64,000 nucleotides of DNA from a virus (IMGVR_UViG_3300028833_000061:1-64000); one strand, 5' to 3'; positions 3,463-54,455 are shown, counted from the stretch's first letter. Numbers and translations are program-made. Notes: generated by a model from the letters alone, not told the origin.

Positions 3463-3981
3463 CTACTTCTTGTTAATCAAATCATCCAGATCGTGCTTGA
3501 ATATATACGATTTAAGTAGGCGCTTCACCTCTTCCCTATCCTCGTCTTCGCCTGTAGTATACATGTCCCTAAGGAAATCAGTCTCTTCTTTTCTCAGTCG
3601 CTGTGTGCCGCTGTCATCTACAACAGCACTAAGAGGATCCTCCTCTATTGAATCCGGAAGGAGTCCAAACAGCATCTTGTGCTTCTTGTATGGAACTTTC
3701 CTAGAATCCAAAGCATTGAACAGATCAGCAGTATAGCCTCGTTTCAAATCCTTCAGCAGCTTAGCCTTATTCAACAGGCCATTCGATTTTTCGTACAGGG
3801 GCTCAGACATTCGCTCGATGGACATATAGTCTACTAAATCCTCAGGAGACATCCAGTTACGGCCTTTGTCATACACGTCGGACAACGAATACTCAATAAG
3901 CGGCTCTGGCAATTCTTCGTCAGACGCCATCTTTTTCATGGCGTCTGTAAAGCCCTGTTTAAATGCCGCGCTTACACTCAT
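3463..3981 (-). CDS. Hypothetical protein with AFKQGF leader
   Basis: MSVSAAFKQGFTDAMKKMAS. Confidence 0.65.
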   Translation of the reverse strand: MSVSAAFKQGFTDAMKKMASDEELPEPLIEYSLSDVYDKGRNWMSPEDLVDYMSIERMSEPLYEKSNGLLNKAKLLKDLKRGYTADLFNALDSRKVPYKKHKMLFGLLPDSIEEDPLSAVVDDSGTQRLRKEETDFLRDMYTTGEDEDREEVKRLLKSYIFKHDLDDLINKK

Positions 3982-4388: not shown

Positions 4389-4754
4389 TTATGCTGACTT
4401 AGGCCGTTTGTTATTCGATATACTGTTAAGTATGTTCTGCATGTTTTTATCTAACGCAGGATACGTCTTCATGTCTTCATATACCGCACGCTGTCGATTG
4501 ATCTTATCAATAAGTGAAGGTTCTGGGGCCATGATATTCTTTATAGCCTCTGTCCAATGAGGCTGTGGCTTAGTCGGCAGAACCCTATGAGCCTGCACAG
4601 CCTTAGCTTGAGCTCCGGTTGTACCAGCACCGCTCATAGCTGCAAATCTCTCAGGAGATACACTTTGGTAGTCTCCTGCAGACATGCCTCCAGTAGGATC
4701 TGCGGCAAGCTTGTACATCATGTCCATGAAACCCTGCTTAAATGCTTCTGTCAT
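4389..4754 (-). CDS. Hypothetical protein with AFKQGFM leader
   Basis: Start reassigned to MTEAFKQGFMDMMYKLAA with upstream GAGGAGG. Confidence 0.65.
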   Translation of the reverse strand: MTEAFKQGFMDMMYKLAADPTGGMSAGDYQSVSPERFAAMSGAGTTGAQAKAVQAHRVLPTKPQPHWTEAIKNIMAPEPSLIDKINRQRAVYEDMKTYPALDKNMQNILNSISNNKRPKSA

Positions 4755-5033: not shown

Positions 5034-6047
5034 TTATTCGAACAACGGTGGCCGAATCTTTGGATCACGAAGAGCCCAAAAGCCTGGATTTTCCTGGAAA
5101 TTTGCATAATCTTTCCAGGCATTCTCACCCCAATCTCGTATGGCTTGTCGCATTTCAGCATAACGACCCGGCACATAATTAAGTCTATAAGAGTCCGGCT
5201 GCACCGATTCTGTTTTTTTAACTGCCATATTACTTGGAACCTCTTTAAATCCATCCGGAATTTCGTATCTATATCCTATAGTTCCATCCTTAAACTCTGG
5301 CCAATATCCAGTATCAAGACGTTTACCACTACTAATGGTCGGAAGCTCCCCAGTCTCAACAGAGAAAGGATACATTTCTCTAGAAGGGAATGAGTCTACA
5401 GTGCTAACAGGAACGGGTTTTAACTCCCCTTTTACATAATCTGGAGCTCCAAGTGCATCTTTTAAATGCTGTCCAGTAGAGGCCATTCTTGTGGCATCGC
5501 CTTCAGTAATAGCGGTCGCCATCGACCTAGCAAGACCGTCGTTTTCAGCTACGCTAAGTCCTTTATCAGCAAGCGCAGCCCTGACCGCATTATCTATCTC
5601 TGCCCACTGTTCGTTTCCGCGCCCTGACAGCATTTTAGGACTTGCATACCTCCTTCCAGACACATCTAGAAGACCAGGAGATCTATGTTTGCGCGTTTCA
5701 GCAAGCACTTCTGGTTTTTCTTCTATAATTTGTGGAGATTTTGAAGCTGTGCCGTAGACCCTTGCAATCTCTTCGGGTGACTTCTTCGTAGCTGCAACCT
5801 CCTCAGGAGTAATCGTTATCTTCGAAGGAACCTTTGCAGCGGCAACCTCTTCAGGTGTAATAGTGATCTTCGGAGCGGCCTTTGCAGCCCCTCTACCAAA
5901 TAGACCCTTCACACCTCTGGCAACTGCTCCTGCTCCACGTCTGGCAGCCTGTGCCACTGGCTTCGCAATAAGATCCGTAAATGCATTCGAGTCCTTCTCG
6001 AACTCTGCCATCTTGTCCATGAAACCCTGCTTAAATGCGTCTGTCAT
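5034..6047 (-). CDS. Hypothetical protein with AFKQGFM leader and duplicated KITITPEEVAA
   Basis: 337-aa ORF, AGGAG RBS, own terminator. Confidence 0.7.
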   Translation of the reverse strand: MTDAFKQGFMDKMAEFEKDSNAFTDLIAKPVAQAARRGAGAVARGVKGLFGRGAAKAAPKITITPEEVAAAKVPSKITITPEEVAATKKSPEEIARVYGTASKSPQIIEEKPEVLAETRKHRSPGLLDVSGRRYASPKMLSGRGNEQWAEIDNAVRAALADKGLSVAENDGLARSMATAITEGDATRMASTGQHLKDALGAPDYVKGELKPVPVSTVDSFPSREMYPFSVETGELPTISSGKRLDTGYWPEFKDGTIGYRYEIPDGFKEVPSNMAVKKTESVQPDSYRLNYVPGRYAEMRQAIRDWGENAWKDYANFQENPGFWALRDPKIRPPLFE

Positions 6048-29740: not shown

Positions 29741-30005
29741 TTCAAAGATCAAAGACCACGGATCGCTCGGGCTTGCACTTGCGTGCAAGAAGCTGTATTT
29801 CCAGTACGATCTGCCTAGTACATTCTTTCCCGCGTGGTCGTGAAGATGGGCCCCCATTATTCATGAGGGCAGGCCGTTTGTCAACGGCCGTTCTTCTTGT
29901 CGGATTTGGACGCCGAGATGAACTGCGGCACCCAGATGATCAAGAAGATCGCGACAAGAGCAAGGATCGCTCTGTCGTCGAGCTGTCCAAGAGAGGCCAG
30001 CATAC

Positions 30006-30407
30006 TTAGGCCTTCTTGTGGTGGTTCTGATGATAACGATTGGAATTGTCGACCATGAGGTCGTACACGACGACCTTGTCGACTCGGCTCTCCTTGACGA
30101 AGAATCCGCCCGTGCCAGCCCATTCCTGGAAAGCCGGCAGGTCGTTCTTCCCGAGCTTGAGATAACGCCCGGACTGGACCTTGGTCTGCTCGGTGAGTCC
30201 GAGGCGAGTGCAGAGCTCCTGCATCACCTCGTTCGTCGAGCAGTTGCGAACGATGAGGCTGTCGTCGTCGTTGACCTCAGACAACTTCACCTCGGTAGGC
30301 TTCTTCTCACGCGGAGAGTACCTGGGCTTTTCGTTGCGCTCGTTGTTCTTCTGATTCTTTTCAGCGGCTTCAAGATTACCGCGGACTTTGTCTAGCAGGC
30401 TGGACAT
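30006..30407 (-). CDS. Hypothetical protein
   Basis: MSSLLDKV..., high GC3. Confidence 0.65.
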   Translation of the reverse strand: MSSLLDKVRGNLEAAEKNQKNNERNEKPRYSPREKKPTEVKLSEVNDDDSLIVRNCSTNEVMQELCTRLGLTEQTKVQSGRYLKLGKNDLPAFQEWAGTGGFFVKESRVDKVVVYDLMVDNSNRYHQNHHKKA

Positions 30408-30444
30408 TGTTCGGTCCTTTTCTGTTTGGGTGTTTGGTTTGTGG

Positions 30445-30723
30445 TTAGTTGTCTTCTTCCCTAGGGCCGAGAAACTCGGCGAGGGAGAGGAGTGCCTTAT
30501 CGAGAGATTCGGCATCCTCCATACTCTCGACTACGCGTCTCGCAACTTCTTCGAGCTCGATGAACGCCTGTTCGGTGTCCACGCGGAGCTTTTGTTCCTT
30601 TGCGAGAGCCTCGTCGGCTTTCTTCAACAGCGCGAGATTCTCTCTCGCATCATCATCAATAACCTGCTGTACGGCCGTTGAAATCGTAAACAGCAGTTTG
30701 TTCATGGTCGATGTCTTGGCCAT
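30445..30723 (-). CDS. Coiled-coil hypothetical protein
   Basis: MAKTST..., AAAGGA upstream. Confidence 0.6.
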   Translation of the reverse strand: MAKTSTMNKLLFTISTAVQQVIDDDARENLALLKKADEALAKEQKLRVDTEQAFIELEEVARRVVESMEDAESLDKALLSLAEFLGPREEDN

Positions 30724-31048
30724 GGTGTGGTTTCCTTTCCGTGTCCTAGTAGCGGGTTGGACACGTAAGGTTGGAGAGGACTCCCCCGTCGAGGCCGCTA
30801 CACCCGACGGGGGAGTCTTTCGATTACTGTGGGCGAGGGCGCCTGTGTGCGGCGTCCAAGTCAACAGGCGCCGGGAGCGGCGCAGTGTTTGCTACGCTCC
30901 CAACGATGATCCTTCTACCGTCTGGATTCATTAGCTCCTCCAGCTCTAAGGGTCCTTCGGTTTCCGGCGAAATTAAAATACAGCGAAGTGGAACCGGTAT
31001 ACCACTCCGCTTCAAATTATTATCACACAAAAGAGCGAAAAATTAAGT

Positions 31049-33481: not shown

Positions 33482-33917
33482 AGCGCCCCTTGAATGTCAA
33501 ATGATTTTTTCATGGGCCCGATTCGGATTTGTCGTCTACTCTCTTGAACGCTGTTGCAGTGGGGGAGCTCGAGGGGCTTGCCCCTCGTGTTATACGATCC
33601 CCATCAGCGGTTAACGAAGTGGTCGCTGATGTGTCCTTCGTAAGAAGGCAGTGTAACCAGTGTATAATGGCAGTGACCACTACAACACTACAACCGTTGT
33701 TCTGTTGTACAGTTCAACACTATAACAGTTAGGATTTTCAGATGCTCGATCAGAAAATCGTCTTTTTAGTACCCTTTTCGCAGATTTTTGGAAACAAAAA
33801 GTAATGACTTCGACGTACAGACCAGTCAAAAACCTAGTGTTTTGAAGGGTGCATACCGTCGTACACACTACTTATTTTTTCCGTGCATATAACCGCTACA
33901 AGATCAACAGTTAAAGC

Positions 33918-33957: not shown

Positions 33958-35091
33958 CTAATCCTCTCCGTCAGGTGACGAGAAGTCATCCAGGCCTTGC
34001 AGCCTGAAGACTTCGCCAACGGTGATACCGCCAGCCTTAGGAGCCTCCTTGCGGATATCCCTTGGGACGAATCCTATTCTGCACCAGTAGTGCAGCGGCT
34101 TCTTCGGGTCTCCAAACGACAGGTTGCGCAGATCCTGGGCGTCGTTCACTGAGAATGCAGAGAACTCCTGGACTGCAACGCACACGTCGTCGACACGTCC
34201 TGAATCCAATGCAGTCTCGTACAGACACACATTGAGCTGCGGATTCTGCGTCTGGATGCGATTGATGGCCATTATAGATGGATCGACTCCTTCCACGTCA
34301 AACGGGACCGGCTCCCCTTTCTTTTCTCTTGAGATGTCGATAATAAGCGGAGCTATCATGGAGAACTTTTTAGGAGTGTCGCTCAGCTGCTCCATCTTGA
34401 TCGAATCCTTTATCATGGACTCCCAGGTGGAAGACCACACAAGGTCACGATCGGAGAGCCTCCACCTCTGTGCGGAGATCCACTTTAGTTGCTGGTGGCA
34501 GCGAGGACACTCGACATCCATATCTGTGAGATCCTTGAGCCCTTTGATGACAGTCTTCTCGTCGCCCTTATAAACCGCTACAGTGCGCTTCATATTCTTG
34601 CCGTTGATTTCCGTCTCGATTTCCTTGTTCACCGTGTTGGCGAACAGGACATCTTTGACGGTACGCACGATTGTGCCGCAACTCGGGCAGTTGCACCTCG
34701 CCGACGGTACGCTGACAAGACAAGGTCCACGAACCAAACTGACTCGCACTTTCCCTTCGAACTTGCTTTCCTTCGTCTTCTCGTCGTAGGTATAGCGCTC
34801 GAATTCGAGCTTTCTACGGGGACACGTAAGAACAACCTCATGGACGCTGTAGTCTTCGGTTTTGGAAGAGACGACGAGGTATCCTCTGATACCGGCTCCC
34901 TCGCTAGTCTCGACATGGAGCTTGCCCTTGGAATCTTTCGCCGACCGGATGTCGGTAAAGCCAAGATGACGAACTCCCTTATCTGCTGAATCGCTTCCTG
35001 GATACTTGCTATAAGGCATCACAAGGCAGCATGTAGCAGGCCCATGGTCCTGCAGGAACCCGCCAGGTTGGCGGTTCTTTTTGTTTTTCAT
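33958..35091 (-). CDS. Zn-ribbon-containing hypothetical protein
   Basis: CPSC...CPRC; own promoter motif and terminator. Confidence 0.7.
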   Translation of the reverse strand: MKNKKNRQPGGFLQDHGPATCCLVMPYSKYPGSDSADKGVRHLGFTDIRSAKDSKGKLHVETSEGAGIRGYLVVSSKTEDYSVHEVVLTCPRRKLEFERYTYDEKTKESKFEGKVRVSLVRGPCLVSVPSARCNCPSCGTIVRTVKDVLFANTVNKEIETEINGKNMKRTVAVYKGDEKTVIKGLKDLTDMDVECPRCHQQLKWISAQRWRLSDRDLVWSSTWESMIKDSIKMEQLSDTPKKFSMIAPLIIDISREKKGEPVPFDVEGVDPSIMAINRIQTQNPQLNVCLYETALDSGRVDDVCVAVQEFSAFSVNDAQDLRNLSFGDPKKPLHYWCRIGFVPRDIRKEAPKAGGITVGEVFRLQGLDDFSSPDGED

Positions 35092-35218: not shown

Positions 35219-35452
35219 TTACGGCATGACAAGCCTGCCGGGTCGTGTTCTTCCGTTATACTCGTAATAACAACCCGTGGCGGCGTGTCTTTCATTTTCG
35301 GTGTAAAGATATTCGATAGGATCCTCTTCGATACATTCGCTTGCAGGAAACTTGTAACCCTGGTTTCCTACAAGCGCCTCGTGCTTCATGTTCATCATCA
35401 GGCATAATTGATGACGCTGTGCGTAATAGTATATTCTTCCGGCCTCAATCAT
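35219..35452 (-). CDS. PxxxER array protein 33
   Basis: MIEAGRIYY...TENER. Confidence 0.65.
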   Translation of the reverse strand: MIEAGRIYYYAQRHQLCLMMNMKHEALVGNQGYKFPASECIEEDPIEYLYTENERHAATGCYYEYNGRTRPGRLVMP

Positions 35453-35672
35453 AGTAGAATGGCTCCATTTCGAAACCGCACCATCGCGTGTGGTTTCTTT
35501 CCTCCTCGAACGGTTTCCTGTTCAAGGTTCCAGTAAGCACAAACAGCCTGTCGTAGCTCGAGATCCATTTTGTACGCACTAGAAGAATGTTCGATGCACC
35601 GTAGCGCTCTGCGTTGTATTTGTATACTGCCTCTCGCAGCTTTGACATGTCGTCTCTAGATGACTTAATCAT
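35445..35672 (-). CDS. PxxxER array protein 32
   Basis: MIKSSR...KPFEEER. Confidence 0.7.
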   Translation of the reverse strand: MIKSSRDDMSKLREAVYKYNAERYGASNILLVRTKWISSYDRLFVLTGTLNRKPFEEERNHTRWCGFEMEPFYYD

Positions 35673-35898
35673 AGAACGGCTCCAGCGCGAATCCGTGTCC
35701 CTTTGTAAACATCCTTTCCTGTTCGAACGGTTTTCCGCTGAGAGAGTTGGACAGCACGTATGAGCGTCTGTTGCTGAACACGTAGCTGAACATCCACGCG
35801 GGATGTATCAGAACGTTTGCGCACCTATTTCTAGAAGCGGCGAATTTATAGAACGCCTCGCCCAATATCGAAAATTTCTGCCTTGACGCCACCATCAT
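35665..35898 (-). CDS. PxxxER array protein 31
   Basis: MMVASRQKF...KPFEQER. Confidence 0.7.
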   Translation of the reverse strand: MMVASRQKFSILGEAFYKFAASRNRCANVLIHPAWMFSYVFSNRRSYVLSNSLSGKPFEQERMFTKGHGFALEPFYD

Positions 35899-36137
35899 CT
35901 CGTCATATCTATGCCTGTGAACACGTATCTTGAACTTGCATCGAACCTGCGCTCGTTAGGGCACAGCATGCAGTTCTTGAGAACAGTCTTAGGACTGTAC
36001 GGACCATAGTGCGGAGGACTATAAGGAGAAGGATAGTACTTTCTTCCCATCCTAAGACCAGGATATGCCAGCTTTGTGATGCTGTCGTGGGCCGCTCGCA
36101 TCATCTCTAAGTAATGCCTTGCATCTATGTGTCTCAT
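35895..36137 (-). CDS. PxxxER array protein 30
   Basis: MRHIDARHY...CPNER. Confidence 0.65.
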   Translation of the reverse strand: MRHIDARHYLEMMRAAHDSITKLAYPGLRMGRKYYPSPYSPPHYGPYSPKTVLKNCMLCPNERRFDASSRYVFTGIDMTR

Positions 36138-36403
36138 CAGTAGAATTGTTTTGATCTTTTACTGCCTGGATACCAGGCACCGAGACCGCAGATCGAACAA
36201 CCGTTGATGTCGTTATCTCGTTCAGCTCTGAACGGATGTGTATTCCTTAGAACGCCTTCAGGGTCTATTGGGCCATGTATAGTATTACCGAACAATCCAA
36301 GACTAGTAGGCCCAAGATGAAGGTACGGCGATACGATCTTGTCCACCGCTATGTATGTAGATTCCAGTTTTTGTTCAACATACCATCGCGTAATCCATCT
36401 CAT
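36137..36403 (-). CDS. PxxxER array protein 29
   Basis: MRWITRWY...HPFRAER; AGGAGG RBS. Confidence 0.7.
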   Translation of the reverse strand: MRWITRWYVEQKLESTYIAVDKIVSPYLHLGPTSLGLFGNTIHGPIDPEGVLRNTHPFRAERDNDINGCSICGLGAWYPGSKRSKQFY

Positions 36404-36411
36404 ACAACCTC

Positions 36412-36609
36412 CTATCTTCCGTACGCCCATCCTGAGCTGTTCACACGTCTTTCGACGTTGAACGGATGGACTATCCTGTCCTTGTCGTTGCCTACCGTGT
36501 TCCGTCGTCTGATCTGACCGAACTTGAGCAGGAGTTCAGTGTTGTCCCGATATATCATTCCAAGCCACCTGAGCTCTCCTGCAAGGCACCATCTTTTGAT
36601 TCTGCTCAT
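36412..36609 (-). CDS. PxxxER array protein 28
   Basis: MSRIKRW...HPFNVER. Confidence 0.65.
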   Translation of the reverse strand: MSRIKRWCLAGELRWLGMIYRDNTELLLKFGQIRRRNTVGNDKDRIVHPFNVERRVNSSGWAYGR

Positions 36610-36839
36610 GAGAATATGCAGTCCATACTCTCTGCGCTGTATCTGTGCTTCACGTGCGGGAAATGAATATGGAAATTGAATATCTCTGCACGCTCGTCGT
36701 GCATAGGCCTGTAGTCAGGCCATGCTCCAGTGAGCGCGAATGGATTCATCAGAAACCAGTGCTTCAACTCATCTACGCCATACATTAGTGAGGCGTATTT
36801 AACGTGCAAGTAGTACTCGCTTCTGTATGCTCGTTTCAT
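36606..36839 (-). CDS. PxxxER array protein 27
   Basis: MKRAYRSEY...RPMHDER. Confidence 0.7.
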   Translation of the reverse strand: MKRAYRSEYYLHVKYASLMYGVDELKHWFLMNPFALTGAWPDYRPMHDERAEIFNFHIHFPHVKHRYSAESMDCIFS

Positions 36840-37084
36840 GCTAGTTGTATCGGCTTGTAGCGCTCTCCGGCGAAGAACCAGGTCTTGAGCTTGTCGTTCC
36901 AAGGATACTTGTAGATCCTCATGAACTGCTGGCGCTCCGTCTTCACCGGGTTGTGTATCGCTGCTGGCATGATTGGATACCTGCATCCGTCGAACTCCAA
37001 AAGCGTTTGTTCGCAGAAGGGTATGACTTCTATTCTAGTCAGCCTCTCCTGCTGGAACAGAAATCTCCTGGTTATACCAACCAT
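36836..37084 (-). CDS. PxxxER array protein 26
   Basis: MVGITRRF...NPVKTER. Confidence 0.7.
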   Translation of the reverse strand: MVGITRRFLFQQERLTRIEVIPFCEQTLLEFDGCRYPIMPAAIHNPVKTERQQFMRIYKYPWNDKLKTWFFAGERYKPIQLA

Positions 37085-37094
37085 CTGATTCCTT

Positions 37095-37343
37095 TCAGTT
37101 GAATTGTCTTATGTCGAAGCATCCGTTCTCGAACCAGCAGTACGGCCACTCCGCTTCTCGATCCCCCTCCATCTTTTTACGTATATATGAAGCAAAGTGG
37201 CGTCTTTCAGCATTGAACGGATGTCTTGTGATGGCCGGGATGGTGTCGGCTGGAGGCTCTATTATAAGATATGCCTGCCCGCTTACTCCACGAGGACAAA
37301 ACCTGTGGACGTAATTGAAGAAGCCCCTGTCTGATTTAATCAT
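37095..37343 (-). CDS. PxxxER array protein 25
   Basis: MIKSDRGFF...HPFNAER. Confidence 0.7.
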   Translation of the reverse strand: MIKSDRGFFNYVHRFCPRGVSGQAYLIIEPPADTIPAITRHPFNAERRHFASYIRKKMEGDREAEWPYCWFENGCFDIRQFN

Positions 37344-37573
37344 AGGCAGAGCCTCATTTCACGTTTGGCATGCCCGGTGTAAACGAAGTCATATGCGTAC
37401 GTAACCGCAATCCTGAATGCCCTGCGCTCGTATCTGATGAAATCCCCGATCATGTGCGAATCCTTCTCCGGCCATCTGGCAGGAGGTATACGCATCAGGG
37501 CCATCTCGTTCCACTGCTCGCGCCTGACGTATCCAAGCTGCCAATTCCACGTCTTCCTTTCAAGGCCGATCAT
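37340..37573 (-). CDS. PxxxER array protein 24
   Basis: MIGLERKTW...FIRYER. Confidence 0.65.
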   Translation of the reverse strand: MIGLERKTWNWQLGYVRREQWNEMALMRIPPARWPEKDSHMIGDFIRYERRAFRIAVTYAYDFVYTGHAKREMRLCL

Positions 37574-37797
37574 TTGAACTTGCCTCTAAGCTTTCCGCAC
37601 AGCGGCCCGTATACGTGGCCGCCGTGTATCTTCTGCATCTTAACGCCGGCACGTTCGTCGTTCATCGGATGGTACGGGTCGCCTCCCATCCAGTAGTCCT
37701 CTTCTGGCCACAGGCATTTCCTGTCAAAGCGTCTTGCTGCATCAAGCCGCGTAATTCTGTATGCCTGAAACAGATACTTCTTCTTCAGGTAAATCAT
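37570..37797 (-). CDS. PxxxER array protein 23
   Basis: MIYLKKKY...HPMNDER. Confidence 0.7.
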   Translation of the reverse strand: MIYLKKKYLFQAYRITRLDAARRFDRKCLWPEEDYWMGGDPYHPMNDERAGVKMQKIHGGHVYGPLCGKLRGKFK

Positions 37798-38021
37798 TTA
37801 AGATCCTTTGTGTTGTATGTCATTCCGCACACCCTGTAAAATTTGTTCAATGTCCTGTAATGCAGTCTTTCATATGTCTCAGGTTGCGGGAATATCGGTA
37901 GCATGTAAGTATTTTCGTTTCGATACGAGTTTCCGAAATACGTCCTGATTATCTCTATTCTGCTTGTGTTGAATACCGAGTGGTACGAACGGTACAGCCT
38001 TTCTCTCGATGCGAATATCAT
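37794..38021 (-). CDS. PxxxER array protein 22
   Basis: MIFASRERLY...QPETYER; AGGAGG RBS. Confidence 0.7.
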   Translation of the reverse strand: MIFASRERLYRSYHSVFNTSRIEIIRTYFGNSYRNENTYMLPIFPQPETYERLHYRTLNKFYRVCGMTYNTKDLK

Positions 38022-38045
38022 TCAAGCCTCCTTGCCAGCCCAGCC

Positions 38046-38231
38046 TCATCTGAACATCGACAACCGTATAGGATTTACACGCTCTTGCTCGTAAGGACGC
38101 CAATCGAACATTGTACGAGACAAGTACGGTGCCCTGCTGTATCCGAATACCGCAGGCGCCCTCTTGAGATCGTATGTTGCAAGAAGCGCCCTGTGATTGC
38201 GTGCGTGTATGTATCTTCTTGACGTCTTCAT
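38046..38231 (-). CDS. PxxxER array protein 21
   Basis: MKTSRRY...RPYEQER. Confidence 0.7.
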   Translation of the reverse strand: MKTSRRYIHARNHRALLATYDLKRAPAVFGYSRAPYLSRTMFDWRPYEQERVNPIRLSMFR

Positions 38232-38404
38232 TTGAACCAACCTGCGTGCGCACGCCTGTCTGCGTCGAACGGACGCCAGTCGACAATCGTTGCGATTCTA
38301 GGAACCTTGTCGAATCCGAAGAGGTACCAGCTCTTTTTCCAGTCATACGATATGACTAGCGACTGGTGATACCTGCGGTGGATGTGCCTTCTTGCCAGCC
38401 TCAT
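38228..38404 (-). CDS. PxxxER array protein 20
   Basis: MRLARRHI...RPFDADR. Confidence 0.7.
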   Translation of the reverse strand: MRLARRHIHRRYHQSLVISYDWKKSWYLFGFDKVPRIATIVDWRPFDADRRAHAGWFK

Positions 38405-38583
38405 TTGAACGTTCCGTCCATTCTTACGCAGATTCTTTCGATACTCTGTGGCCTGTAGTCCCTTAGCATACTGATGTAAGGCACTTTGTCGTACCCAAAT
38501 ATGACGGGTGCGTTCTTGACGTCGCATGACCACATCATCCACCTTAGATACATGTGGTATGTGCGTCTTATTGCCAGCCTCAT
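38401..38583 (-). CDS. PxxxER array protein 19
   Basis: MRLAIRRTY...RPQSIER. Confidence 0.7.
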   Translation of the reverse strand: MRLAIRRTYHMYLRWMMWSCDVKNAPVIFGYDKVPYISMLRDYRPQSIERICVRMDGTFK

Positions 38584-38801
38584 TTGTACCTCGACACCCT
38601 ATACGTTGTTCCACGGAACACAGCCCAGCATTCATGCCGTCTCTTCGCCTCGGCAAGCCTGTCTCTCTCGTCTCTTACAATGTGTTTCGGATACGAGTGG
38701 TGGTTTGGTTTGATTCTAAGTTTTGCGCAAGAATCGTAATCAACTACGCCAATCTCCCAGTTAAGCTCATGTCGATACATATACCTTTTGAAGTTTATCA
38801 T
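38580..38801 (-). CDS. PxxxER array protein 18
   Basis: MINFKRYMY...IVRDER. Confidence 0.7.
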   Translation of the reverse strand: MINFKRYMYRHELNWEIGVVDYDSCAKLRIKPNHHSYPKHIVRDERDRLAEAKRRHECWAVFRGTTYRVSRYK

Positions 38802-39040
38802 CTGTACTTAAGGTAGTATTCCTCGTCATTCTTAGGCGCTCCCGGATCTATACAGTTTATATATCCAAATGTTCCGTGAATAGCCTCCCAGCGCTCAGCT
38901 CTGAACGGCCTGTAAGGATTTATAATGTGCGCATCGTTGTACAGCCTTAGCTTCGTCTGTGAATTCCAATTGCAGTCACTTGTATACTGAAGGCTGTCGT
39001 GCAGCTTTCTATGCCAATTGATTCTAGTAAGCATTATCAT
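38798..39040 (-). CDS. PxxxER array protein 17
   Basis: MIMLTRINW...RPFRAER. Confidence 0.7.
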   Translation of the reverse strand: MIMLTRINWHRKLHDSLQYTSDCNWNSQTKLRLYNDAHIINPYRPFRAERWEAIHGTFGYINCIDPGAPKNDEEYYLKYR

Positions 39041-39267
39041 TTGAAGTCGCTCACTCTCCTTAGTATGCCGTCGTACCAGAACCATCGATGGTCTGTACGA
39101 AACGAATCCCGATAAGCCGAGCAATTCAGGCTCTCACGTTCGCCGCACGGAGCATTGTCTATGTACGTGAACGTCCTGGACGGATCCTGCAAATGTGCCT
39201 TGCACAAGTCAAGATCCTTGTATCCATAGAATCCACGAGTGTATCTTGGTCTTGTGTAGCCTATCAT
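39037..39267 (-). CDS. PxxxER array protein 16
   Basis: MIGYTRPRY...APCGER. Confidence 0.7.
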   Translation of the reverse strand: MIGYTRPRYTRGFYGYKDLDLCKAHLQDPSRTFTYIDNAPCGERESLNCSAYRDSFRTDHRWFWYDGILRRVSDFK

Positions 39268-39470
39268 ATGTAGTTACCTGGTGATATGTTGTGGGTCTTA
39301 ATACTACAAAAGTGATCCCTTTCGTACGTCACAGGATTCGGATGCCACGACGGTTCGTTCAAAATCAGGATGCTCCTAAGGCCCAGCTTGAATTCATCGT
39401 CCTTCTTGTTCGTTATACTCCTGAAGTATCCAAGCCTGAACGCGTACCCGCGCCTACGCCATACGATCAT
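39264..39470 (-). CDS. PxxxER array protein 15
   Basis: MIVWRRRGY...NPVTYER. Confidence 0.7.
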   Translation of the reverse strand: MIVWRRRGYAFRLGYFRSITNKKDDEFKLGLRSILILNEPSWHPNPVTYERDHFCSIKTHNISPGNYI

Positions 39471-39676
39471 GAGTCATAGCGGAATGGCCACAGCTTGAGG
39501 CGGTGTTTCCGCAGCTCTTCCTTGTTCTTGAACAGCACGCGCTCGTCCTCGGTAGGAGTCCAGTTGGAATATGACTTGTACTGATCGACGATGTACGCCG
39601 CCTCGCACGTGCACGGCTTTCTTTTTTTCTCGGTCTTTAACGCGGCGAAATATTGCCATCTGCTACAGTTTATCAT
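39467..39676 (-). CDS. PxxxER array protein 14
   Basis: MINCSRWQY...TPTEDER. Confidence 0.7.
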   Translation of the reverse strand: MINCSRWQYFAALKTEKKRKPCTCEAAYIVDQYKSYSNWTPTEDERVLFKNKEELRKHRLKLWPFRYDS

Positions 39677-39861
39677 TTGTATTGGTACAGGTCATGATGC
39701 CACTGGAATCGTAGCCGCTCGTAATATATTACGCCCGGCAGGTGAATCTTGTAGGACTTCTTTGTAAGCAGATCCAGAAGTTCCCGATCGTTGATGTTTT
39801 TCGTGGATTCGTTGGCTTCCTTCAGGTCGACAAGATAGTCCCATCTGTTGTACTTTATCAT
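39673..39861 (-). CDS. PxxxER array protein 13
   Basis: MIKYNRWDY...VIYYER. Confidence 0.7.
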   Translation of the reverse strand: MIKYNRWDYLVDLKEANESTKNINDRELLDLLTKKSYKIHLPGVIYYERLRFQWHHDLYQYK

Positions 39862-40106
39862 GTGAACATGCTCGTAGGTTTCCACCTTATCCACGAGCCG
39901 GCCATAAGCAGCCCGCATCTTCTGCGGTATGCATCATCGTCGATAGCTGCATTTAGATACTTGCGCTCTTCGCTGAATATGTCCTTTGGCGGTATAACAC
40001 TGACGAATCTGGAACACTTGTGCCTCTCTATCGCATAGTCGCTTTCTATGTGCCTTCCCTCGAACAAGAAGTCTATTTCATACTTGTGCCTGGTGTAGTT
40101 GATCAT
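39858..40106 (-). CDS. PxxxER array protein 12
   Basis: MINYTRHKY...IFSEER. Confidence 0.7.
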   Translation of the reverse strand: MINYTRHKYEIDFLFEGRHIESDYAIERHKCSRFVSVIPPKDIFSEERKYLNAAIDDDAYRRRCGLLMAGSWIRWKPTSMFT

Positions 40107-40330
40107 TTAAATATGCTCCTTGAGATCCACTCGTCGTATAGTCCGAGGGCAGGAAACCAGCCGATGACACGCATCCTTTCGTAGACCCTTATGAATTCCG
40201 TCCTCTCGTACCTGTCCGGGTATGGCGCGCTTGGCATACTTATGTGGTCTATATTCCACTTAAGGTCGACACGCTCGCACAGTGCAATCTCGTAGCCCTC
40301 GTAGTAACGTCGCCTGCTTACGTTGATCAT
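40103..40330 (-). CDS. PxxxER array protein 11
   Basis: MINVSRRRY...YPDRYER. Confidence 0.7.
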   Translation of the reverse strand: MINVSRRRYYEGYEIALCERVDLKWNIDHISMPSAPYPDRYERTEFIRVYERMRVIGWFPALGLYDEWISRSIFK

Positions 40331-40539
40331 TTTATCAAGTCCATCCAGCAGTAATTGCCGTAGAACCACAGGCACGGCTTGTCGGTGTGTACCATAGAGT
40401 TCAGCCTGCGTCTCTCGCTCTTGTCTGGATTTTCTTCTATGTATCTTTTTCCTCGCGTAGGCCACGACACGTGACTGCAGTAGTATTTCACTGTATTCTC
40501 GTGACCGGTCAAGTAGGATGCTCTGTGAATGTTGATCAT
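40327..40539 (-). CDS. PxxxER array protein 10
   Basis: MINIHRASY...NPDKSER. Confidence 0.7.
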   Translation of the reverse strand: MINIHRASYLTGHENTVKYYCSHVSWPTRGKRYIEENPDKSERRRLNSMVHTDKPCLWFYGNYCWMDLIK

Positions 40540-40781
40540 CTTATGTCCCTATAATTTACATCGTACGCACGCACAGACAGAGGAGGCGGCGGCGAAACAT
40601 GCAGGTACGCGATCATGTCATTGTATCCGTGGATCCTGTCCCTCTCGTAGCTGTCTGGCTTTCCAGGGAACCTGAAAGTTCCAAAGTCATAGAATTCACT
40701 GTCGAACAGACGAGGATGTGCCCTGCTTCTGATGACCATTTCAAGCATGTCCAGGTACTGTTGCTTTCCGAAGTTTATCAT
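40536..40781 (-). CDS. PxxxER array protein 9
   Basis: MINFGKQQY...KPDSYER. Confidence 0.75.
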   Translation of the reverse strand: MINFGKQQYLDMLEMVIRSRAHPRLFDSEFYDFGTFRFPGKPDSYERDRIHGYNDMIAYLHVSPPPPLSVRAYDVNYRDIR

Positions 40782-41005
40782 CTTATTTCGTAGTATCCTA
40801 CCTTGTACATCCTGACAGACAGGTCAAGCCTGCAGTTGATCCTGTTGTATGTGTCGATACGGCTCCTCTCGTAACTATCAGGCTTTCCGGTAAACGGACC
40901 ATGACCAACATCGTATAATCCGTAGTCGAACAGGAAAGGATGCGCTCTGTTGTAGTTGAGAGCCTTCAGCATTCCACAATACTGTCGCTTGCCAAAATTG
41001 ATCAT
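40778..41005 (-). CDS. PxxxER array protein 8
   Basis: MINFGKRQY...KPDSYER. Confidence 0.75.
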   Translation of the reverse strand: MINFGKRQYCGMLKALNYNRAHPFLFDYGLYDVGHGPFTGKPDSYERSRIDTYNRINCRLDLSVRMYKVGYYEIR

Positions 41006-41250
41006 CTGAACATGCGCAACGGTGTGCGGTAGATGTACTTAGGTTGACTGTAGCTATCGATAAGCCTTCTGTGCCGAAGCCTCTCGTCGTAAGGAGGATT
41101 GTACCTAACCATGAAGTATTCGCCATTCCGCGGGAATACGCTCTCGGGCTGCATGTTCTTCACGGCCGCCCTACGGTAGCACTCGACATGCCATCTGCGT
41201 ATAGTAAGACTCATATCAGCATACTCCTGAAATCGAATCCGCGTATCCAT
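41002..41250 (-). CDS. PxxxER array protein 7
   Basis: MDTRIRFQEY...YNPPYDER. Confidence 0.7.
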   Translation of the reverse strand: MDTRIRFQEYADMSLTIRRWHVECYRRAAVKNMQPESVFPRNGEYFMVRYNPPYDERLRHRRLIDSYSQPKYIYRTPLRMFR

Positions 41251-41423
41251 CGTTCATGAGTATGGTGCTTGTTTGCCCCGTACACAATCTTCCGCTCCCT
41301 GTCGAACGGATTGTACCTCGAATACGCACATTTAAACTTCTTTGGAAACAGCGAATCGGGTTCTGCGCTTCCGCGCAGTTCCTTGAAGAAGTAATACCAC
41401 ATGTATCGGTATTCGCGTATCAT
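41211..41423 (-). CDS. PxxxER array protein 6
   Basis: MIREYRYMW...YNPFDRER. Confidence 0.7.
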   Translation of the reverse strand: MIREYRYMWYYFFKELRGSAEPDSLFPKKFKCAYSRYNPFDRERKIVYGANKHHTHERWIRGFDFRSMLI

Positions 41424-41674
41424 CTTAGATTATCCATGTTTACTCTAGAGTATCTGAATCTGCCAAATCTGCCGAGCTCGATCCGTCTGCTCTTGAAATA
41501 TCTAAGCTGTGTTCTTTCGCTGAACACCGGATCTTCCTCGAGTATCCAATGCCTTGACTCTGGAATCTCGAACATGTGTTTTAACTCAGGTGCAGGAATA
41601 AGGTCCTTGTTCCTGCTGTCGAAGTTGGCACCGCGAAGTCCTAGCTCGTAGCTTATCCTGCCGACGTGTATCAT
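41420..41674 (-). CDS. PxxxER array protein 5
   Basis: MIHVGRISY...EEDPVFSER. Confidence 0.75.
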   Translation of the reverse strand: MIHVGRISYELGLRGANFDSRNKDLIPAPELKHMFEIPESRHWILEEDPVFSERTQLRYFKSRRIELGRFGRFRYSRVNMDNLR

Positions 41675-41919
41675 CGTATGTTCTCCGCGGATACTAGGAG
41701 TCCTCTTATGTTGGCCCGGTCCCAGCCACGCACTCTGAAAAGATAGTCTATGCGCTCCCTCTCGTGCCACACTGGATCTTCCTCCAACGGAAACGGTCCT
41801 CCGCCCCATATAGCATCTTCACCCAGCCCTTTTGGCTCAGGCATTACGCTCTTGTTCCTGCAGTTGTATACCGTGTCGCAGAGTCCCATGTCGTAGCTTT
41901 TTCTGCTTACTCCTATCAT
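41671..41919 (-). CDS. PxxxER array protein 4
   Basis: MIGVSRKSY...EEDPVWHER. Confidence 0.75.
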   Translation of the reverse strand: MIGVSRKSYDMGLCDTVYNCRNKSVMPEPKGLGEDAIWGGGPFPLEEDPVWHERERIDYLFRVRGWDRANIRGLLVSAENIR

Positions 41920-42203
41920 CTGTATACCTCGAACTTTATGCCGTCCCTTCTGTGAAGAGCCCGGCTGATGCCGGCCGCTTCGAACAGCGCAATGCGCAAT
42001 CCGCTCATTGCATTGAGACAGTTCAGGTAGCCACGCACGCCCTTGGATATTCGATACATCTTGAACAGCTTCCTTTCGCTGTCGTCGACACAGCATCTGT
42101 ACGGGCCGTTGTCGACTGTACCGTTGATCTGGTTGTTGTAGGCGTCGTGCGCCAACTCGAGGCAGGTGTAGAACTTGTCCCTGTTCCAAATCTTGCTAAG
42201 CAT
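41916..42203 (-). CDS. PxxxER array protein 3
   Basis: MLSKIWNRDKF...VDDSER. Confidence 0.6.
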   Translation of the reverse strand: MLSKIWNRDKFYTCLELAHDAYNNQINGTVDNGPYRCCVDDSERKLFKMYRISKGVRGYLNCLNAMSGLRIALFEAAGISRALHRRDGIKFEVYR

Positions 42204-42576
42204 CGTCTCTTCTCCCGTATCTGGACAAAAGCGCATACCAGTGCATGTTGGTTATCGTGCCAAGCGCGCATGCGCCCAGTTCCGGCAGCATGTCGTACAG
42301 CATCACGTCCTTGTACTTCTCATAGTAGTACTTGCGAGAGTAGTCTCCGTCAATCGGAGGATTCCACAAGGATCTCAGCCTGTGAAACCACGCGCACGCT
42401 CCGGGATAGTACGTCCTCTCAGAGTGCAATCCTAGCAGATCGACCACATCCACCTTGCGGCTGTACCACTCGCCTTCTCTGCCTGGATGCTGATACATGA
42501 ACGTCTGTGAGTTGTTCCTGAGTATCTTTAAATTTTCCCAGTCGACGTCGTACCTGCGCCTTGTGTACCCAAGCAT
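42196..42576 (-). CDS. PxxxER array protein 2
   Basis: MLGYTRRRY...LHSER. Confidence 0.65.
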   Translation of the reverse strand: MLGYTRRRYDVDWENLKILRNNSQTFMYQHPGREGEWYSRKVDVVDLLGLHSERTYYPGACAWFHRLRSLWNPPIDGDYSRKYYYEKYKDVMLYDMLPELGACALGTITNMHWYALLSRYGRRDDA

Positions 42577-42998
42577 CAGCACAGCTCCTTCCACAAGTTT
42601 GTCCTGAATCTGAACAGCTTTTCAGTGAAGCTCGGCCGAAGTCCAGGCGTATACTGAAAGTCGTTCATCAGTGCGTTCACGAGCCTGGACATGTACGATG
42701 ACGGGCACGGCATAAGTCCAAGATGCCCGGCCTTTCTTCCTCTGCCATAGTCGTATTCGTCGAAGCAGCTGCTCGTGCAGAATCGCTCTTCGTCGATGTC
42801 CATAAATCCGGTAAGCTGATACGTGCTCACTGAATGGCAGTCACGAGGATCGAACGATCCAAAGTAGTTCGTGCCAAGCTGTATAACCGACATCCCGAAA
42901 TCGAACGACTGCCCCCTGAGAAGACATTCGTCGTGGAACAGCCGCACGCAGGCCATGTCTGAAACAGTCTTCCAGTAGAGTTGTCTTTTGTTCCTCAT
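42576..42998 (-). CDS. PxxxER array protein 1
   Basis: MRNKRQLY...DIDEER; weakest match to the family. Confidence 0.55.
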   Translation of the reverse strand: MRNKRQLYWKTVSDMACVRLFHDECLLRGQSFDFGMSVIQLGTNYFGSFDPRDCHSVSTYQLTGFMDIDEERFCTSSCFDEYDYGRGRKAGHLGLMPCPSSYMSRLVNALMNDFQYTPGLRPSFTEKLFRFRTNLWKELC

Positions 42999-43006
42999 TG
43001 TGAAAA

Positions 43007-43130
43007 GCAATCAGGGCCCGAGGATCGGCTCTAACGATCATCTCGGCTCCCAAGACGTGTTTTTAGTTCCAGGCGCCACCCATTAAGACGCCTGCCCACA
43101 CGGGCTTTAAACTACACGGGCCCTGATTGC
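43007..43130 (-). ncRNA. Structured RNA between tRNA-Gly and the array, family unassigned
   Basis: Perfect 14-bp inverted repeat GCAATCAGGGCCCG enclosing internal hairpins. Confidence 0.6.
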
Positions 43131-43133
43131 AAA

Positions 43134-43207
43134 TGGAGCGACGTGCGGGAGTCGAACCCGCCTGACTAGCTTGGAAGGCTAGGACCCAGCCGCTAGGCCA
43201 ACGTCGC
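43134..43207 (-). tRNA. tRNA-Gly(TCC)
   Basis: Cloverleaf, U73, CCA. Confidence 0.9.
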
Positions 43208-44324
43208 ACTGTGTTTTGTTAATAGCCGCCGCTTCTCGTCTGCGCTTTCTGCCGAATTTGTTTCGACCCATCCATGTTGGAGATTGCGAGTCGCAGTTTG
43301 GACAGACAAGCCGGATATTTTCAATGACGTTATTATCGGCGTTTCCGTCGATGTGGTCAACTATAAGCGTCAAGTGCTTGCCGTTCCATTTGCTCCTTCC
43401 GCATATTGCGCATTTGTATCCGCTTGTTCTAGATATATAAAGAACAACTTCTTCACGCTTTATCTCCTGTCCTTGTTTGCTGAAGTATCCTCTTTCCTCT
43501 ACTTCCTGTATAACAATTTTCTTTTTATATTCATTGCAACACGCATGTGAACAGAATTTTTGGTCGCTATAGTGTTTTTTGCGTACAAATTCTTTTCCGC
43601 AATTAAGACATGTCAAGTGAGCCTTTTCAAATCTATCACTTAACAACTTTGAGGCACATGCACGAGAGCAACATACTTGCTCACATCCTCTGCTAAATGT
43701 TCTCTTTTTAAATGTTTTTCCGCATACAGGACATGTTCTAACTAGATCAGGGCGCCGTATTCTCCAGTCAACAATCTTTTTATGGCGTTGTTTCATAGTT
43801 TCACTAAGAACTTTACCCCAGCACTTCGAAGAACAATAAGTCTGACGTACCCGGCCATGAAAACTCTTTCCGCAAACTGGGCATATTTTATACAGACGCT
43901 TTCCTTTACATGCACATCTATGGCTACAGTATATGTGTCCTTCCTGGCTGATTTTTCTTTTATAAGCCAGTTTTCCTTTTGTTACGAAGAACTTTTTACC
44001 ACATGTCGGGCAAGTTACTTCTACCCGTGCTGCGTTTTTTCTTGCTTTGCATCCGCATTTTGGACTGCAATACACATGGCCACCTACGTTATTTTTGATA
44101 GATACTTTCAGCTTTCGTGCAGATATTAGAAACTTTTTACCACAGGTGTGGCACACAGCTTCTACGGTGGCTGCAATTTTTTTAGCTTTGCCAACACATG
44201 CTCTGCTGCAATATACGAAGCCACCAGCATTTCTTGTGGCCGCGCGTTTAAGTTTTTGCTTTTCTATCAGAAACAACTTGCCACAGGTGTGGCACGTAGC
44301 TTCTACGAAGTTATTTCCACCCAT
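43179..44324 (-). CDS. HNH homing endonuclease with multiple N-terminal CxxC...CSxxC Zn-finger repeats
   Basis: VDHIDGNADNNVIENIRLVCPNCD; six repeats; markedly AT-rich. Confidence 0.9.
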   Translation of the reverse strand: MGGNNFVEATCHTCGKLFLIEKQKLKRAATRNAGGFVYCSRACVGKAKKIAATVEAVCHTCGKKFLISARKLKVSIKNNVGGHVYCSPKCGCKARKNAARVEVTCPTCGKKFFVTKGKLAYKRKISQEGHIYCSHRCACKGKRLYKICPVCGKSFHGRVRQTYCSSKCWGKVLSETMKQRHKKIVDWRIRRPDLVRTCPVCGKTFKKRTFSRGCEQVCCSRACASKLLSDRFEKAHLTCLNCGKEFVRKKHYSDQKFCSHACCNEYKKKIVIQEVEERGYFSKQGQEIKREEVVLYISRTSGYKCAICGRSKWNGKHLTLIVDHIDGNADNNVIENIRLVCPNCDSQSPTWMGRNKFGRKRRREAAAINKTQCDVGLAAGS

Positions 44325-44355: not shown

Positions 44356-44428
44356 TGGAGTCTATGGGAGTCGAACCCATTAAAACCTGCGTGCAAGGCA
44401 GGCGCACCAACCGCTATGCGCAGACCCC
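44356..44428 (-). tRNA. tRNA-Ala(TGC)
   Basis: Cloverleaf, G3:U70, no encoded CCA. Confidence 0.9.
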
Positions 44429-44434
44429 GTAAGA

Positions 44435-44519
44435 TGGCTCCAGAGACAGGACTCGAACCTGTAGTTGCTTTCGCCACGGATTAACAATCCGCTGCCATAC
44501 CAATTAGGCTGACTCTGGA
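44435..44519 (-). tRNA. tRNA-Asn(GTT) with long variable arm
   Basis: TCCAGAG acceptor, G73, CCA. Confidence 0.9.
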
Positions 44520-44669
44520 ATAGGTGGAACGGCGCCTATAGTATCACAGCGCCGTATCCAGTCAACTACTTTCTGTGATCCTTGCCGTCGCAGCCGAGCG
44601 CCACAATAAGCGCAACGACCATACCGACGACGACTATCACGTAGACTGCTACATCGTGCATCGCTTCTT

Positions 44670-54380: not shown

Positions 54381-54455
54381 TGGACCGGGTGGGACTTGAA
54401 CCCACAGTCCTGACCTTATAAGGGTCCCGCTCGAACCAATCGCAGCTGCCGGTCC
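54381..54455 (-). tRNA. tRNA-Ile(TAT)
   Basis: GGACCGG/CCGGTCC acceptor, loop CT-TAT-AA, atypical D-arm. Confidence 0.8.

Follow-up and report, generated by a model that had tools for sequence, protein, structure and literature searches.

A stretch of phage DNA from an uncultured virus, the first 64 kb of a 201,401-bp IMG/VR record (IMGVR_UViG_3300028833_000061, rated complete by CheckV) and hereafter the window, carries on its minus strand an array of 33 successive open reading frames (ORFs) of 58–140 amino acids (aa) at positions 35219–42998. Based on comparison of the array with its relatives, we conclude that the units are real, selected protein genes, and that they arose long ago through tandem duplication of the gene for one small basic protein: recent copies are neighbours, and older ones keep only a short signature. 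Tentatively, we read the array as a repertoire of host-directed small proteins, for host takeover or counter-defence, built on one scaffold.

ORFs were started at the first ATG that does not reach far into the preceding gene. The resulting calls bear out a preliminary description, made from the sequence before any search, of 33 consecutive minus-strand ORFs of this size in this interval; 27 of the 33 fall within 58–84 aa, and all genes of the array neighbourhood lie on the minus strand. There is almost no intergenic DNA, as described (42 of 7,780 bases are non-coding). The genes were also said to be mostly chained by ATGA stop/start overlaps. This holds for 24 of the 32 junctions, fewer than that wording implied, and the other eight consist of overlaps of 1 nt (two) or 8 nt (three) and of three gaps. 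The gaps, of 24, 10 and 8 nt, are preceded by the Shine–Dalgarno-like sequences AAGGAGG, AAAGGAA and TAGGAGG, respectively. Strong Shine–Dalgarno sequences occur exactly at these three junctions, and many ATGA junctions have none. Such a layout is what a translationally coupled operon would be expected to have, with stop and start overlapping and a Shine–Dalgarno sequence where coupling breaks. Together with the selection on the reading frames described below, it supports the proposal of one operon-like chain of protein genes.

We compared motif counts with 2,000 composition-preserving shuffles of each protein. The pattern P...ER is present in 22 of the 33 members (shuffled mean 0.8, maximum 5), M[ILVM]...R in 20 (shuffled mean 0.8) and M....R..[YWF] in 19 (shuffled mean 0.6). 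Both features singled out at the outset, the start M-I-x-x-x-R-x-x-Y/W/F (less than one expected in shuffles) and P-x-x-x-E-R as the usual form of the second motif, are therefore far above expectation. An acidic–Arg pair was claimed for every member and is found in each, as ER in 32 and DR in the remaining one, and the E/D-R column aligns across all 33. In a MAFFT alignment the motif Arg is invariant and the motif Glu and Pro are at least 90% conserved. The E-R pair lies 41–61 residues from the start in 30 of 33 proteins, and the tail after the motif measures 8–35 residues in the 23 proteins carrying P-x-x-x-[ED]-R. Synonymous codons vary at the conserved residues: R6 is encoded by AGA, AGG, CGA or CGC, the Pro by CCG, CCT or CCA, the Glu by GAG or GAA, and the codon of Y9 varies too. 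Thus the constraint acts on the protein, a DNA-level repeat is ruled out, and R6, the aromatic residue at position 9 and PxxxER are conserved as protein features.

A family hidden Markov model (HMM) matches all 33 members at E ≤ 0.01, and none of the genome's remaining 2,613 six-frame ORFs scores better than E 0.19. This comparison with other ORFs, a check proposed in the preliminary description, separates the members but is circular. No family member was found elsewhere in the 201-kb genome with this HMM and six-frame ORFs. Leave-one-out HMMs recover 16 of the 33 members at E < 0.05. Based on BLASTP among members, 7 of 528 pairs are significant, so that similarity has been lost in 99% of pairs, and with so few similar pairs the membership of about half of the units rests on motif, size and position. 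Numbering the units m01 to m33 from the first gene of the chain, membership of m01 is doubtful (leave-one-out E 130; motif without the Pro). Six of the seven significant pairs lie within two array positions of each other and five are adjacent (m4/5, m8/9, m19/20/21, m31/32).

Selection was evaluated against orthologous arrays in two related contigs, L002 (84% nucleotide identity) and L005. The pooled ratio of nonsynonymous to synonymous substitution rates (dN/dS, or omega) of the array is 0.34 and 0.40 against the two relatives, with 29 gene pairs each, and substitutions by codon position 1/2/3 number 367/298/524. Constraint is strongest at the shared positions: omega is 0.24 for residues 1–10 and 0.18 for the six motif residues, compared with 0.42 in the variable middle and 0.41 after the motif. 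Flanking genes have omega of 0.07 and 0.17, so that constraint on the array is 2–5 times weaker. Seven members (m01, m02, m12, m14, m20, m23, m28) have low omega (0.11–0.18), and m10, m15 and m27 have values of 0.75–3.1, from just 2–8 synonymous changes. Positive selection is not shown for the array overall by dN/dS against L002 and L005. Reading frames are kept open in three diverged arrays, about 30 in each, and in a goat-gut relative the indels compensate each other within a few bases.

Codon usage of the array resembles that of 13 large core genes (AGA+AGG make up 66% vs 60% of Arg codons, and ATA 52% vs 50% of Ile codons), so the array is not a recent import. On the same result we rejected a recent foreign origin as well as a particular codon style to which the phage tRNAs would cater. 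Plus-strand coding was also rejected, as a 222-aa antisense ORF (41832–42500) is broken by stops in both relatives. The array proteins are mostly basic (isoelectric point 8.5–11 in 27 of 33; net charge +2 to +9 in 27 of 33; four neutral or acidic), are enriched relative to core proteins in Arg, His and Trp (2.3-fold) and in Tyr (1.8-fold), and have no hydrophobic segments. We also observed that dS to L002 is lower in the array (0.29–0.33) than in flanking genes (0.57, 1.35), though the array proteins differ more. This could reflect constraint at synonymous sites, lineages having recently exchanged the array, or noise of the estimator.

The arrays of the relatives differ in whole units. L002 has 31 units: m08 is missing, the m21 orthologue is frameshifted just ahead of E-R, and a chimera with the front of m04 and the back of m05, joined in a shared E-E-D-P-V, stands in place of two genes. 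L005 has about 29 units, with m08, m11, m19 and m33 missing as whole units and the ATGA junction restored, and m15 reduced to a remnant. A further contig, L010, shows synteny with the window over two intervals at 79–82% identity: one runs from 49207 to tRNA-Gly (43123), the other starts at 33587 and continues downwards. The space that separates tRNA-Gly in L010 from the homologue of the 377-aa gene following the array is taken up by about 1.5 kb of other genes, and the family HMM has no match in L010, compared with 29 in L002 and 27 in L005. As L010 has the syntenic flanks and the tRNA trio but none of the units, we conclude that the array is accessory and occupies a replacement hot spot. Its size changes through gain or loss of complete units and through crossover of adjacent copies. 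Two further relatives, found via the terminase (51–52% identity), are fragments in which no match was obtained, an uninformative result. The phage itself is remote from cultured phages: its terminase shares 30% identity with the terminases of Salmonella phage Arash and of some Vibrio phages. The suggestion that the array is an arms-race repertoire is consistent with the unit numbers (33, 31, about 29 and 0) and with the relaxed omega (0.34–0.40 vs 0.07–0.17 in the flanks); positive selection overall is not supported.

The 33 units, in chain order and with the evidence for each, are the following.
42576–42998, minus strand: m01, 140 aa; first gene of the chain, doubtful family member; omega 0.18
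42196–42576, minus strand: m02, 126 aa; N-terminal family motif, ER at 53–54, long C-terminal extension; omega 0.16
41916–42203, minus strand: m03, 95 aa; alignment and leave-one-out HMM
41671–41919, minus strand: m04, 82 aa; recent paralogue of m05 (BLASTP E 1e-9)
41420–41674, minus strand: m05, 84 aa; paralogue of m04 (BLASTP)
41211–41423, minus strand: m06, 70 aa; alignment and leave-one-out HMM
41002–41214, minus strand: m07, 70 aa; alignment and leave-one-out HMM
40778–41005, minus strand: m08, 75 aa; paralogue of m09 (53% identical), missing in L002 and L005
40536–40781, minus strand: m09, 81 aa; paralogue of m08
40327–40539, minus strand: m10, 70 aa; structure modelled with AlphaFold2 (confidence score pLDDT 61.5); omega 0.75–1.0
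40103–40330, minus strand: m11, 75 aa; whole unit missing in L005
39858–40106, minus strand: m12, 82 aa; ORF; omega within 0.11–0.18
39673–39861, minus strand: m13, 62 aa; length counted from the ATGA-coupled start
39467–39676, minus strand: m14, 69 aa; best family HMM score; omega 0.14
39264–39470, minus strand: m15, 68 aa; omega 3.07 vs L002, from 18 nonsynonymous and 2 synonymous changes only
39037–39267, minus strand: m16, 76 aa; ORF
38798–39040, minus strand: m17, 80 aa; ORF
38580–38801, minus strand: m18, 73 aa; ORF
38401–38583, minus strand: m19, 60 aa; m19–m21 triplet, modelled with AlphaFold2 (pLDDT 59.3), missing in L005
38228–38404, minus strand: m20, 58 aa; sole member with D-R for E-R; omega within 0.11–0.18
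38046–38231, minus strand: m21, 61 aa; L002 orthologue frameshifted just ahead of the ER motif
37794–38021, minus strand: m22, 75 aa; after the 24-nt gap, with its own AAGGAGG
37570–37797, minus strand: m23, 75 aa; omega 0.12
37340–37573, minus strand: m24, 77 aa; ORF
37095–37343, minus strand: m25, 82 aa; ORF
36836–37084, minus strand: m26, 82 aa; after the 10-nt gap, with AAAGGAA
36606–36839, minus strand: m27, 77 aa; omega 1.28 vs L005, from 21 nonsynonymous and 4 synonymous changes
36412–36609, minus strand: m28, 65 aa; omega 0.11
36137–36403, minus strand: m29, 88 aa; after the 8-nt gap, with TAGGAGG
35895–36137, minus strand: m30, 80 aa; ORF
35665–35898, minus strand: m31, 77 aa; paralogue of m32 (43% identical)
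35445–35672, minus strand: m32, 75 aa; paralogue of m31
35219–35452, minus strand: m33, 77 aa; last unit, missing in L005

Two distant members, m10 and m19, were modelled using AlphaFold2 with family alignments. The m10 model has a helix at residues 6–21, an unstructured stretch at 22–37, a second helix at 38–49 and a hairpin at 56–65; the m19 model has helices at 2–19 and 45–56. In both, the second helix starts at the motif Pro, a pattern that points to a pair of constant helices on either side of a variable middle. The idea of a mini-scaffold with a diversified surface fits this: the two low-confidence models, which are too weak to assign a fold, place the shared positions on helices flanking the variable middle. 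The structural comparison put forward as a check yielded no neighbour above noise, the m10 model being without such a match in Foldseek against BFVD and in VIA-align against 48,161 PDB chains. In the ESM Atlas, whose own models have pLDDT 0.40, the neighbours did not rise above chance. A predicted m10 homodimer scored 0.00, which speaks neither for nor against binding. Use of P-x-x-x-E-R as a docking site is not supported over a role as a structural helix cap.

Sequence searches gave a similar picture. No significant match was obtained for any of the 33 members in Pfam, PHROGs or NCBIfam, nor with a profile in the PDB sequences, where the best hits were to single members (E 0.0068–0.66), and blastn and tblastn against 50,697 phage records gave no match. 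Pattern scans of IMG/VR with one member and with the 377-aa neighbour found nothing. When 1.84 billion representative proteins were searched with a profile, nine matches came back, all of them orthologues from close relatives; 5.8 billion proteins searched through a word index yielded near-identical orthologues only. Based on sequence, the family is an orphan with no relatives outside this phage lineage in the databases searched, in agreement with the initial impression that it belongs to no known family.

Upstream of the array and on the same strand are features that may place it in a longer transcription unit.
44538–44565, minus strand: candidate sigma-70-like promoter with extended -10 (TTGACT-16-TACTAT, TG before the -10), by consensus match and conservation
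44356–44519, minus strand: tRNA-Asn(GTT) and tRNA-Ala(TGC), upstream of the array
43179–44324, minus strand: HNH homing-endonuclease gene (PHROG 1271, E 6e-39), outside the array module
43134–43207, minus strand: tRNA-Gly(TCC), the last gene ahead of the leader RNA
43007–43130, minus strand: structured leader RNA, 124 nt (minimum free energy -62.3 kcal/mol, z -5.3)

The putative sigma-70-like promoter lies about 18 nt upstream of tRNA-Asn, and an element matching it occupies the corresponding position in L002, L005 and L010. The predicted fold of the leader RNA is multi-branched, with a 14-bp closing helix; from its end to the first ATG of the array, which has no Shine–Dalgarno sequence, there are 8 nt. 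The leader is about 95% conserved in L002, L005 and L006, more than the coding part, and is absent from the array-less L010. It has no match in Rfam, and a known riboswitch or RNA family was rejected on this basis. Inside the array, the coding strand has no sigma-70-type site above 9/12 and no G+C-rich terminator-like hairpin. From the layout and the consensus match we infer a single transcript running from the tRNA promoter via the leader into the chain. The tRNA Asn-Ala-Gly trio is contiguous in L002, L005 and L010 and is split in the window by the HNH gene, which is absent from all three relatives; this gene sits in the 6-nt spacer between tRNA-Ala and tRNA-Gly, and its last 29 nt overlap tRNA-Gly. 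Elsewhere, a 17th tRNA (54381–54455, minus strand) was recognised by the Rfam tRNA model (44.9 bits) and is not listed by ARAGORN.

The full-length stretch was found in two sheep-gut DNA runs, which may be its source, and in two RNA runs of another sheep sample, and partially in goat-gut runs; the runs containing the array come from 12 studies. Bovine-gut runs share 0.16–0.25 of its words and were not used for habitat. RNA depth was taken over 20 kb from contigs of the two RNA runs of the one sheep sample, which are identical to the window. It reaches 114 at 29934–30763, is 15–24 at 31–35.2 kb and falls to 0.5–6 over the array and upstream. Depth of the DNA run over the same 20 kb is flat at 32.5, and given this difference some of the RNA-library signal is RNA. 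We do not count the array depth as proof of transcription, because it comes from contigs and DNA carry-over is possible. In both RNA runs the contigs break between 35199 and 35304, at the 3' end of the array, which weakly hints that the 377-aa gene forms a separate unit. The deepest stretch (29934–30763; depths 114 and 57) covers a 169-aa ORF at 30006–30515 with no Pfam match.

The 377-aa gene itself (33958–35091, minus strand) follows the array, encodes two CxxC pairs and has no Pfam or PHROG match. Its homologue is kept in array-less L010 (30% identity, E 1e-49), so it is not dedicated to the array. Apart from the array, at least ten otherwise different ORFs of the genome open with a leader M-T-x-x-F-K-x-G-F, several of them adjoining tail genes, and L010 carries a similar leader, M-T-A-F-E-L-G-F, at its array-less site. 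This leader may be a virion-addressing or processing signal. The ORFs lie as follows.
Window, minus strand: 743–1285, 3463–3981, 4389–4754 and 5034–6047
Genome: 171666–175449 and 199753–201086

If the array is a repertoire of host-directed proteins, which we consider possible and lean towards without holding it probable, the constant helices would supply the fold or a contact shared by the members, and the variable parts would direct each member to a different target. Helix 1 would carry R6 and the aromatic residue at 9, and helix 2 would be capped by the Pro of P-x-x-x-E-R; between them would lie the hypervariable middle of 15–35 residues, followed by the variable tail. The chain would be co-transcribed with tRNA-Asn, tRNA-Ala and tRNA-Gly from the conserved sigma-70-like promoter, via the leader RNA. 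Such a promoter would make the array a host-polymerase, probably early, transcript. Ribosomes would then move from gene to gene by termination–reinitiation at the ATGA overlaps, with Shine–Dalgarno restarts at the three places where a gap breaks the chain. Diverse small proteins directed at the host have precedents in the plastic regions of large phage genomes (PMC3012670, PMC2839356). A more elaborate version, which we regard as somewhat unlikely, is an expandable library of scaffolded mini-binders in which each copy neutralises a different host defence or takeover target, units are duplicated and lost in accordion fashion, and early expression is tied to the tRNA genes via the leader RNA.

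Several observations weigh against a host-directed repertoire. The omega of the array is below 1 overall, and the three genes near or above 1 rest on the 2–8 synonymous changes mentioned above. The promoter is a consensus match only, and such matches are not enriched in the region (10 found, 13.6 expected). Both structural models are of low confidence and matched no known fold, and the amino-acid composition of the array is partly like that of random ORFs. Array RNA depth is 0.5–6, compared with 15–114 for the genes just downstream, and may be background DNA. Were the members host-directed, one 7.8-kb locus would hold about 30 natural small inhibitors on one fold, and its evolution would document the origin, diversification and pruning of such a repertoire; three array versions and one empty site are known. 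Even without a function, the array is a clear example of tandem duplicates in an uncultured phage that have diverged to an extreme degree, yet kept a few residues, their reading frames and the junctions that couple them.

Part of the same evidence can be read in other ways. Phages G and 121Q contain arrays of more than 30 genes that Hua et al. read as genome-expanding duplication (PMC5646251), and the units here could likewise be mostly neutral tandem amplification, weak or redundant filler in a large capsid, as in the ratchet idea of jumbo phage genome growth. The array is dispensable in L010, its constraint is weaker than that of flanking genes by the factor given above, and one orthologue is frameshifted (m21, L002) and one a remnant (m15, L005). 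We nevertheless find this explanation unlikely: three diverged arrays each hold about 30 open frames, the motif is under stronger constraint (omega 0.18) and several members are at 0.11–0.18, and the indels of the goat-gut relative are compensated. Another candidate role, which we take to be rather unlikely, is that of small nucleic-acid-binding proteins: chaperones for RNA or DNA, compaction proteins, or regulators, whose substrates might include the leader RNA or the tRNAs. The net charge of +2 to +9 in most members, the enrichment in Arg, His, Trp and Tyr, and the position of the chain after three tRNA genes and a conserved structured RNA would suit such proteins. The language-model neighbours of m02 are N-terminal DNA-binding domains of integrases, at a score of 0.89 that is also reached by chance. 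However, our searches found no known fold or family of this kind, four members are neutral or acidic, and generic binding leaves 33 diverged copies unexplained.

The short shared N-terminus raises the question of whether the members are packaged internal (ejection) proteins, with M-I-x-x-x-R-x-x-Y acting as a capsid-targeting signal as in T4 IPI–III, that are injected to block host nucleases. The T4 counterparts are small, diverse and defence-blocking and share only the N-terminal targeting sequence (PMC3012670), and here the first 10 residues are constrained (omega 0.24), the proteins are basic and the locus is present or absent among relatives. But a second conserved motif in mid-protein would be unexpected for a pure targeting tag, and M-T-x-x-F-K-x-G-F, found on no array member, is a better virion-addressing candidate. 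In T4 the N-terminal capsid-targeting sequence terminates at a cleavage site for the prohead protease, L/I-x-E. The array proteins show no such Glu site conserved after their N-terminal motif, and their alignment has no conserved Glu in the first 12 residues. The Pfam prohead proteases S77/S78 (PF03420, PF04586) gave no match at E ≤ 1, which is weak evidence since a divergent protease could escape. Overall we judge internal proteins to be an unlikely identity. The small size of the products, the regular distance of E-R from the start and the 8–35 residue tails would also permit precursor peptides, in which the N-terminal 45–50 residues form a leader cut at or after E-R to release variable peptides of 8–35 residues, either cationic or akin to ribosomally synthesised and post-translationally modified peptides (RiPPs). 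This is highly improbable: the genes beside the array, which encode HNH, metallophosphoesterase, helix-turn-helix and unknown proteins, include none for a modifying enzyme, a protease or an exporter; the supposed leader, unlike known leaders, is hypervariable in sequence and length from residue 10 to the motif; and the tails have no conserved Cys, Ser or Thr patterns.

Compared with known systems, the array lacks the marks of a RiPP precursor array, namely a conserved leader, a variable core and an adjacent modifying enzyme. It shares features with the hyperplastic regions of T4-type phages, where small ORFans under early promoters are shuffled at repeated junctions (PMC2839356). Both are variable, non-essential sites with small orphan genes, a sigma-70-like promoter and a homing endonuclease nearby, and both gain and lose genes at repeated junction elements, which here are the ATGA overlap or the neighbouring paralogue. 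In contrast, each T4-type cassette comes with a promoter and stem-loop of its own and the ORFans have no relation to one another (PMC2839356), whereas the array is one chain of promoter-less paralogues, from which units drop out at ATGA junctions or through crossing-over within adjacent copies.

In function, the nearest comparison is with the T4 internal proteins, which are small, diverse and dispensable, share only an N-terminal targeting sequence and include at least one that blocks a host nuclease (PMC3012670). Like IPI–III, the array encodes small, basic, diverse and dispensable proteins with a short shared N-terminus, at a locus that varies among close relatives. Unlike them, the array proteins have no T4-type cleavage site after the N-terminal motif and carry an extra invariant motif in mid-protein. 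IPI–III are few unrelated genes; here 33 paralogues form one coupled chain.

There is also a likeness to phages G and 121Q, with their tandem arrays, in which over 30 genes closely resemble one another (Hua et al. 2017, PMC5646251). In each case more than 30 small genes stand head-to-tail in a large phage (here 33 units in 201,401 bp). The genes of G and 121Q are described as very similar, whereas here just 7 of 528 pairs are still similar. A family profile built from 80 sequences has no match in the records of 121Q and G (KM507819, 348,532 bp; JN638751, 497,513 bp) and 28 in the phage's own genome, which served as positive control. The arrays are thus of the same kind, with the present one formed by another family and far more diverged. 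We conclude that it is a further case of the tandem mini-gene arrays of large phages, notable for its size, its divergence and its context of tRNA genes and leader RNA.

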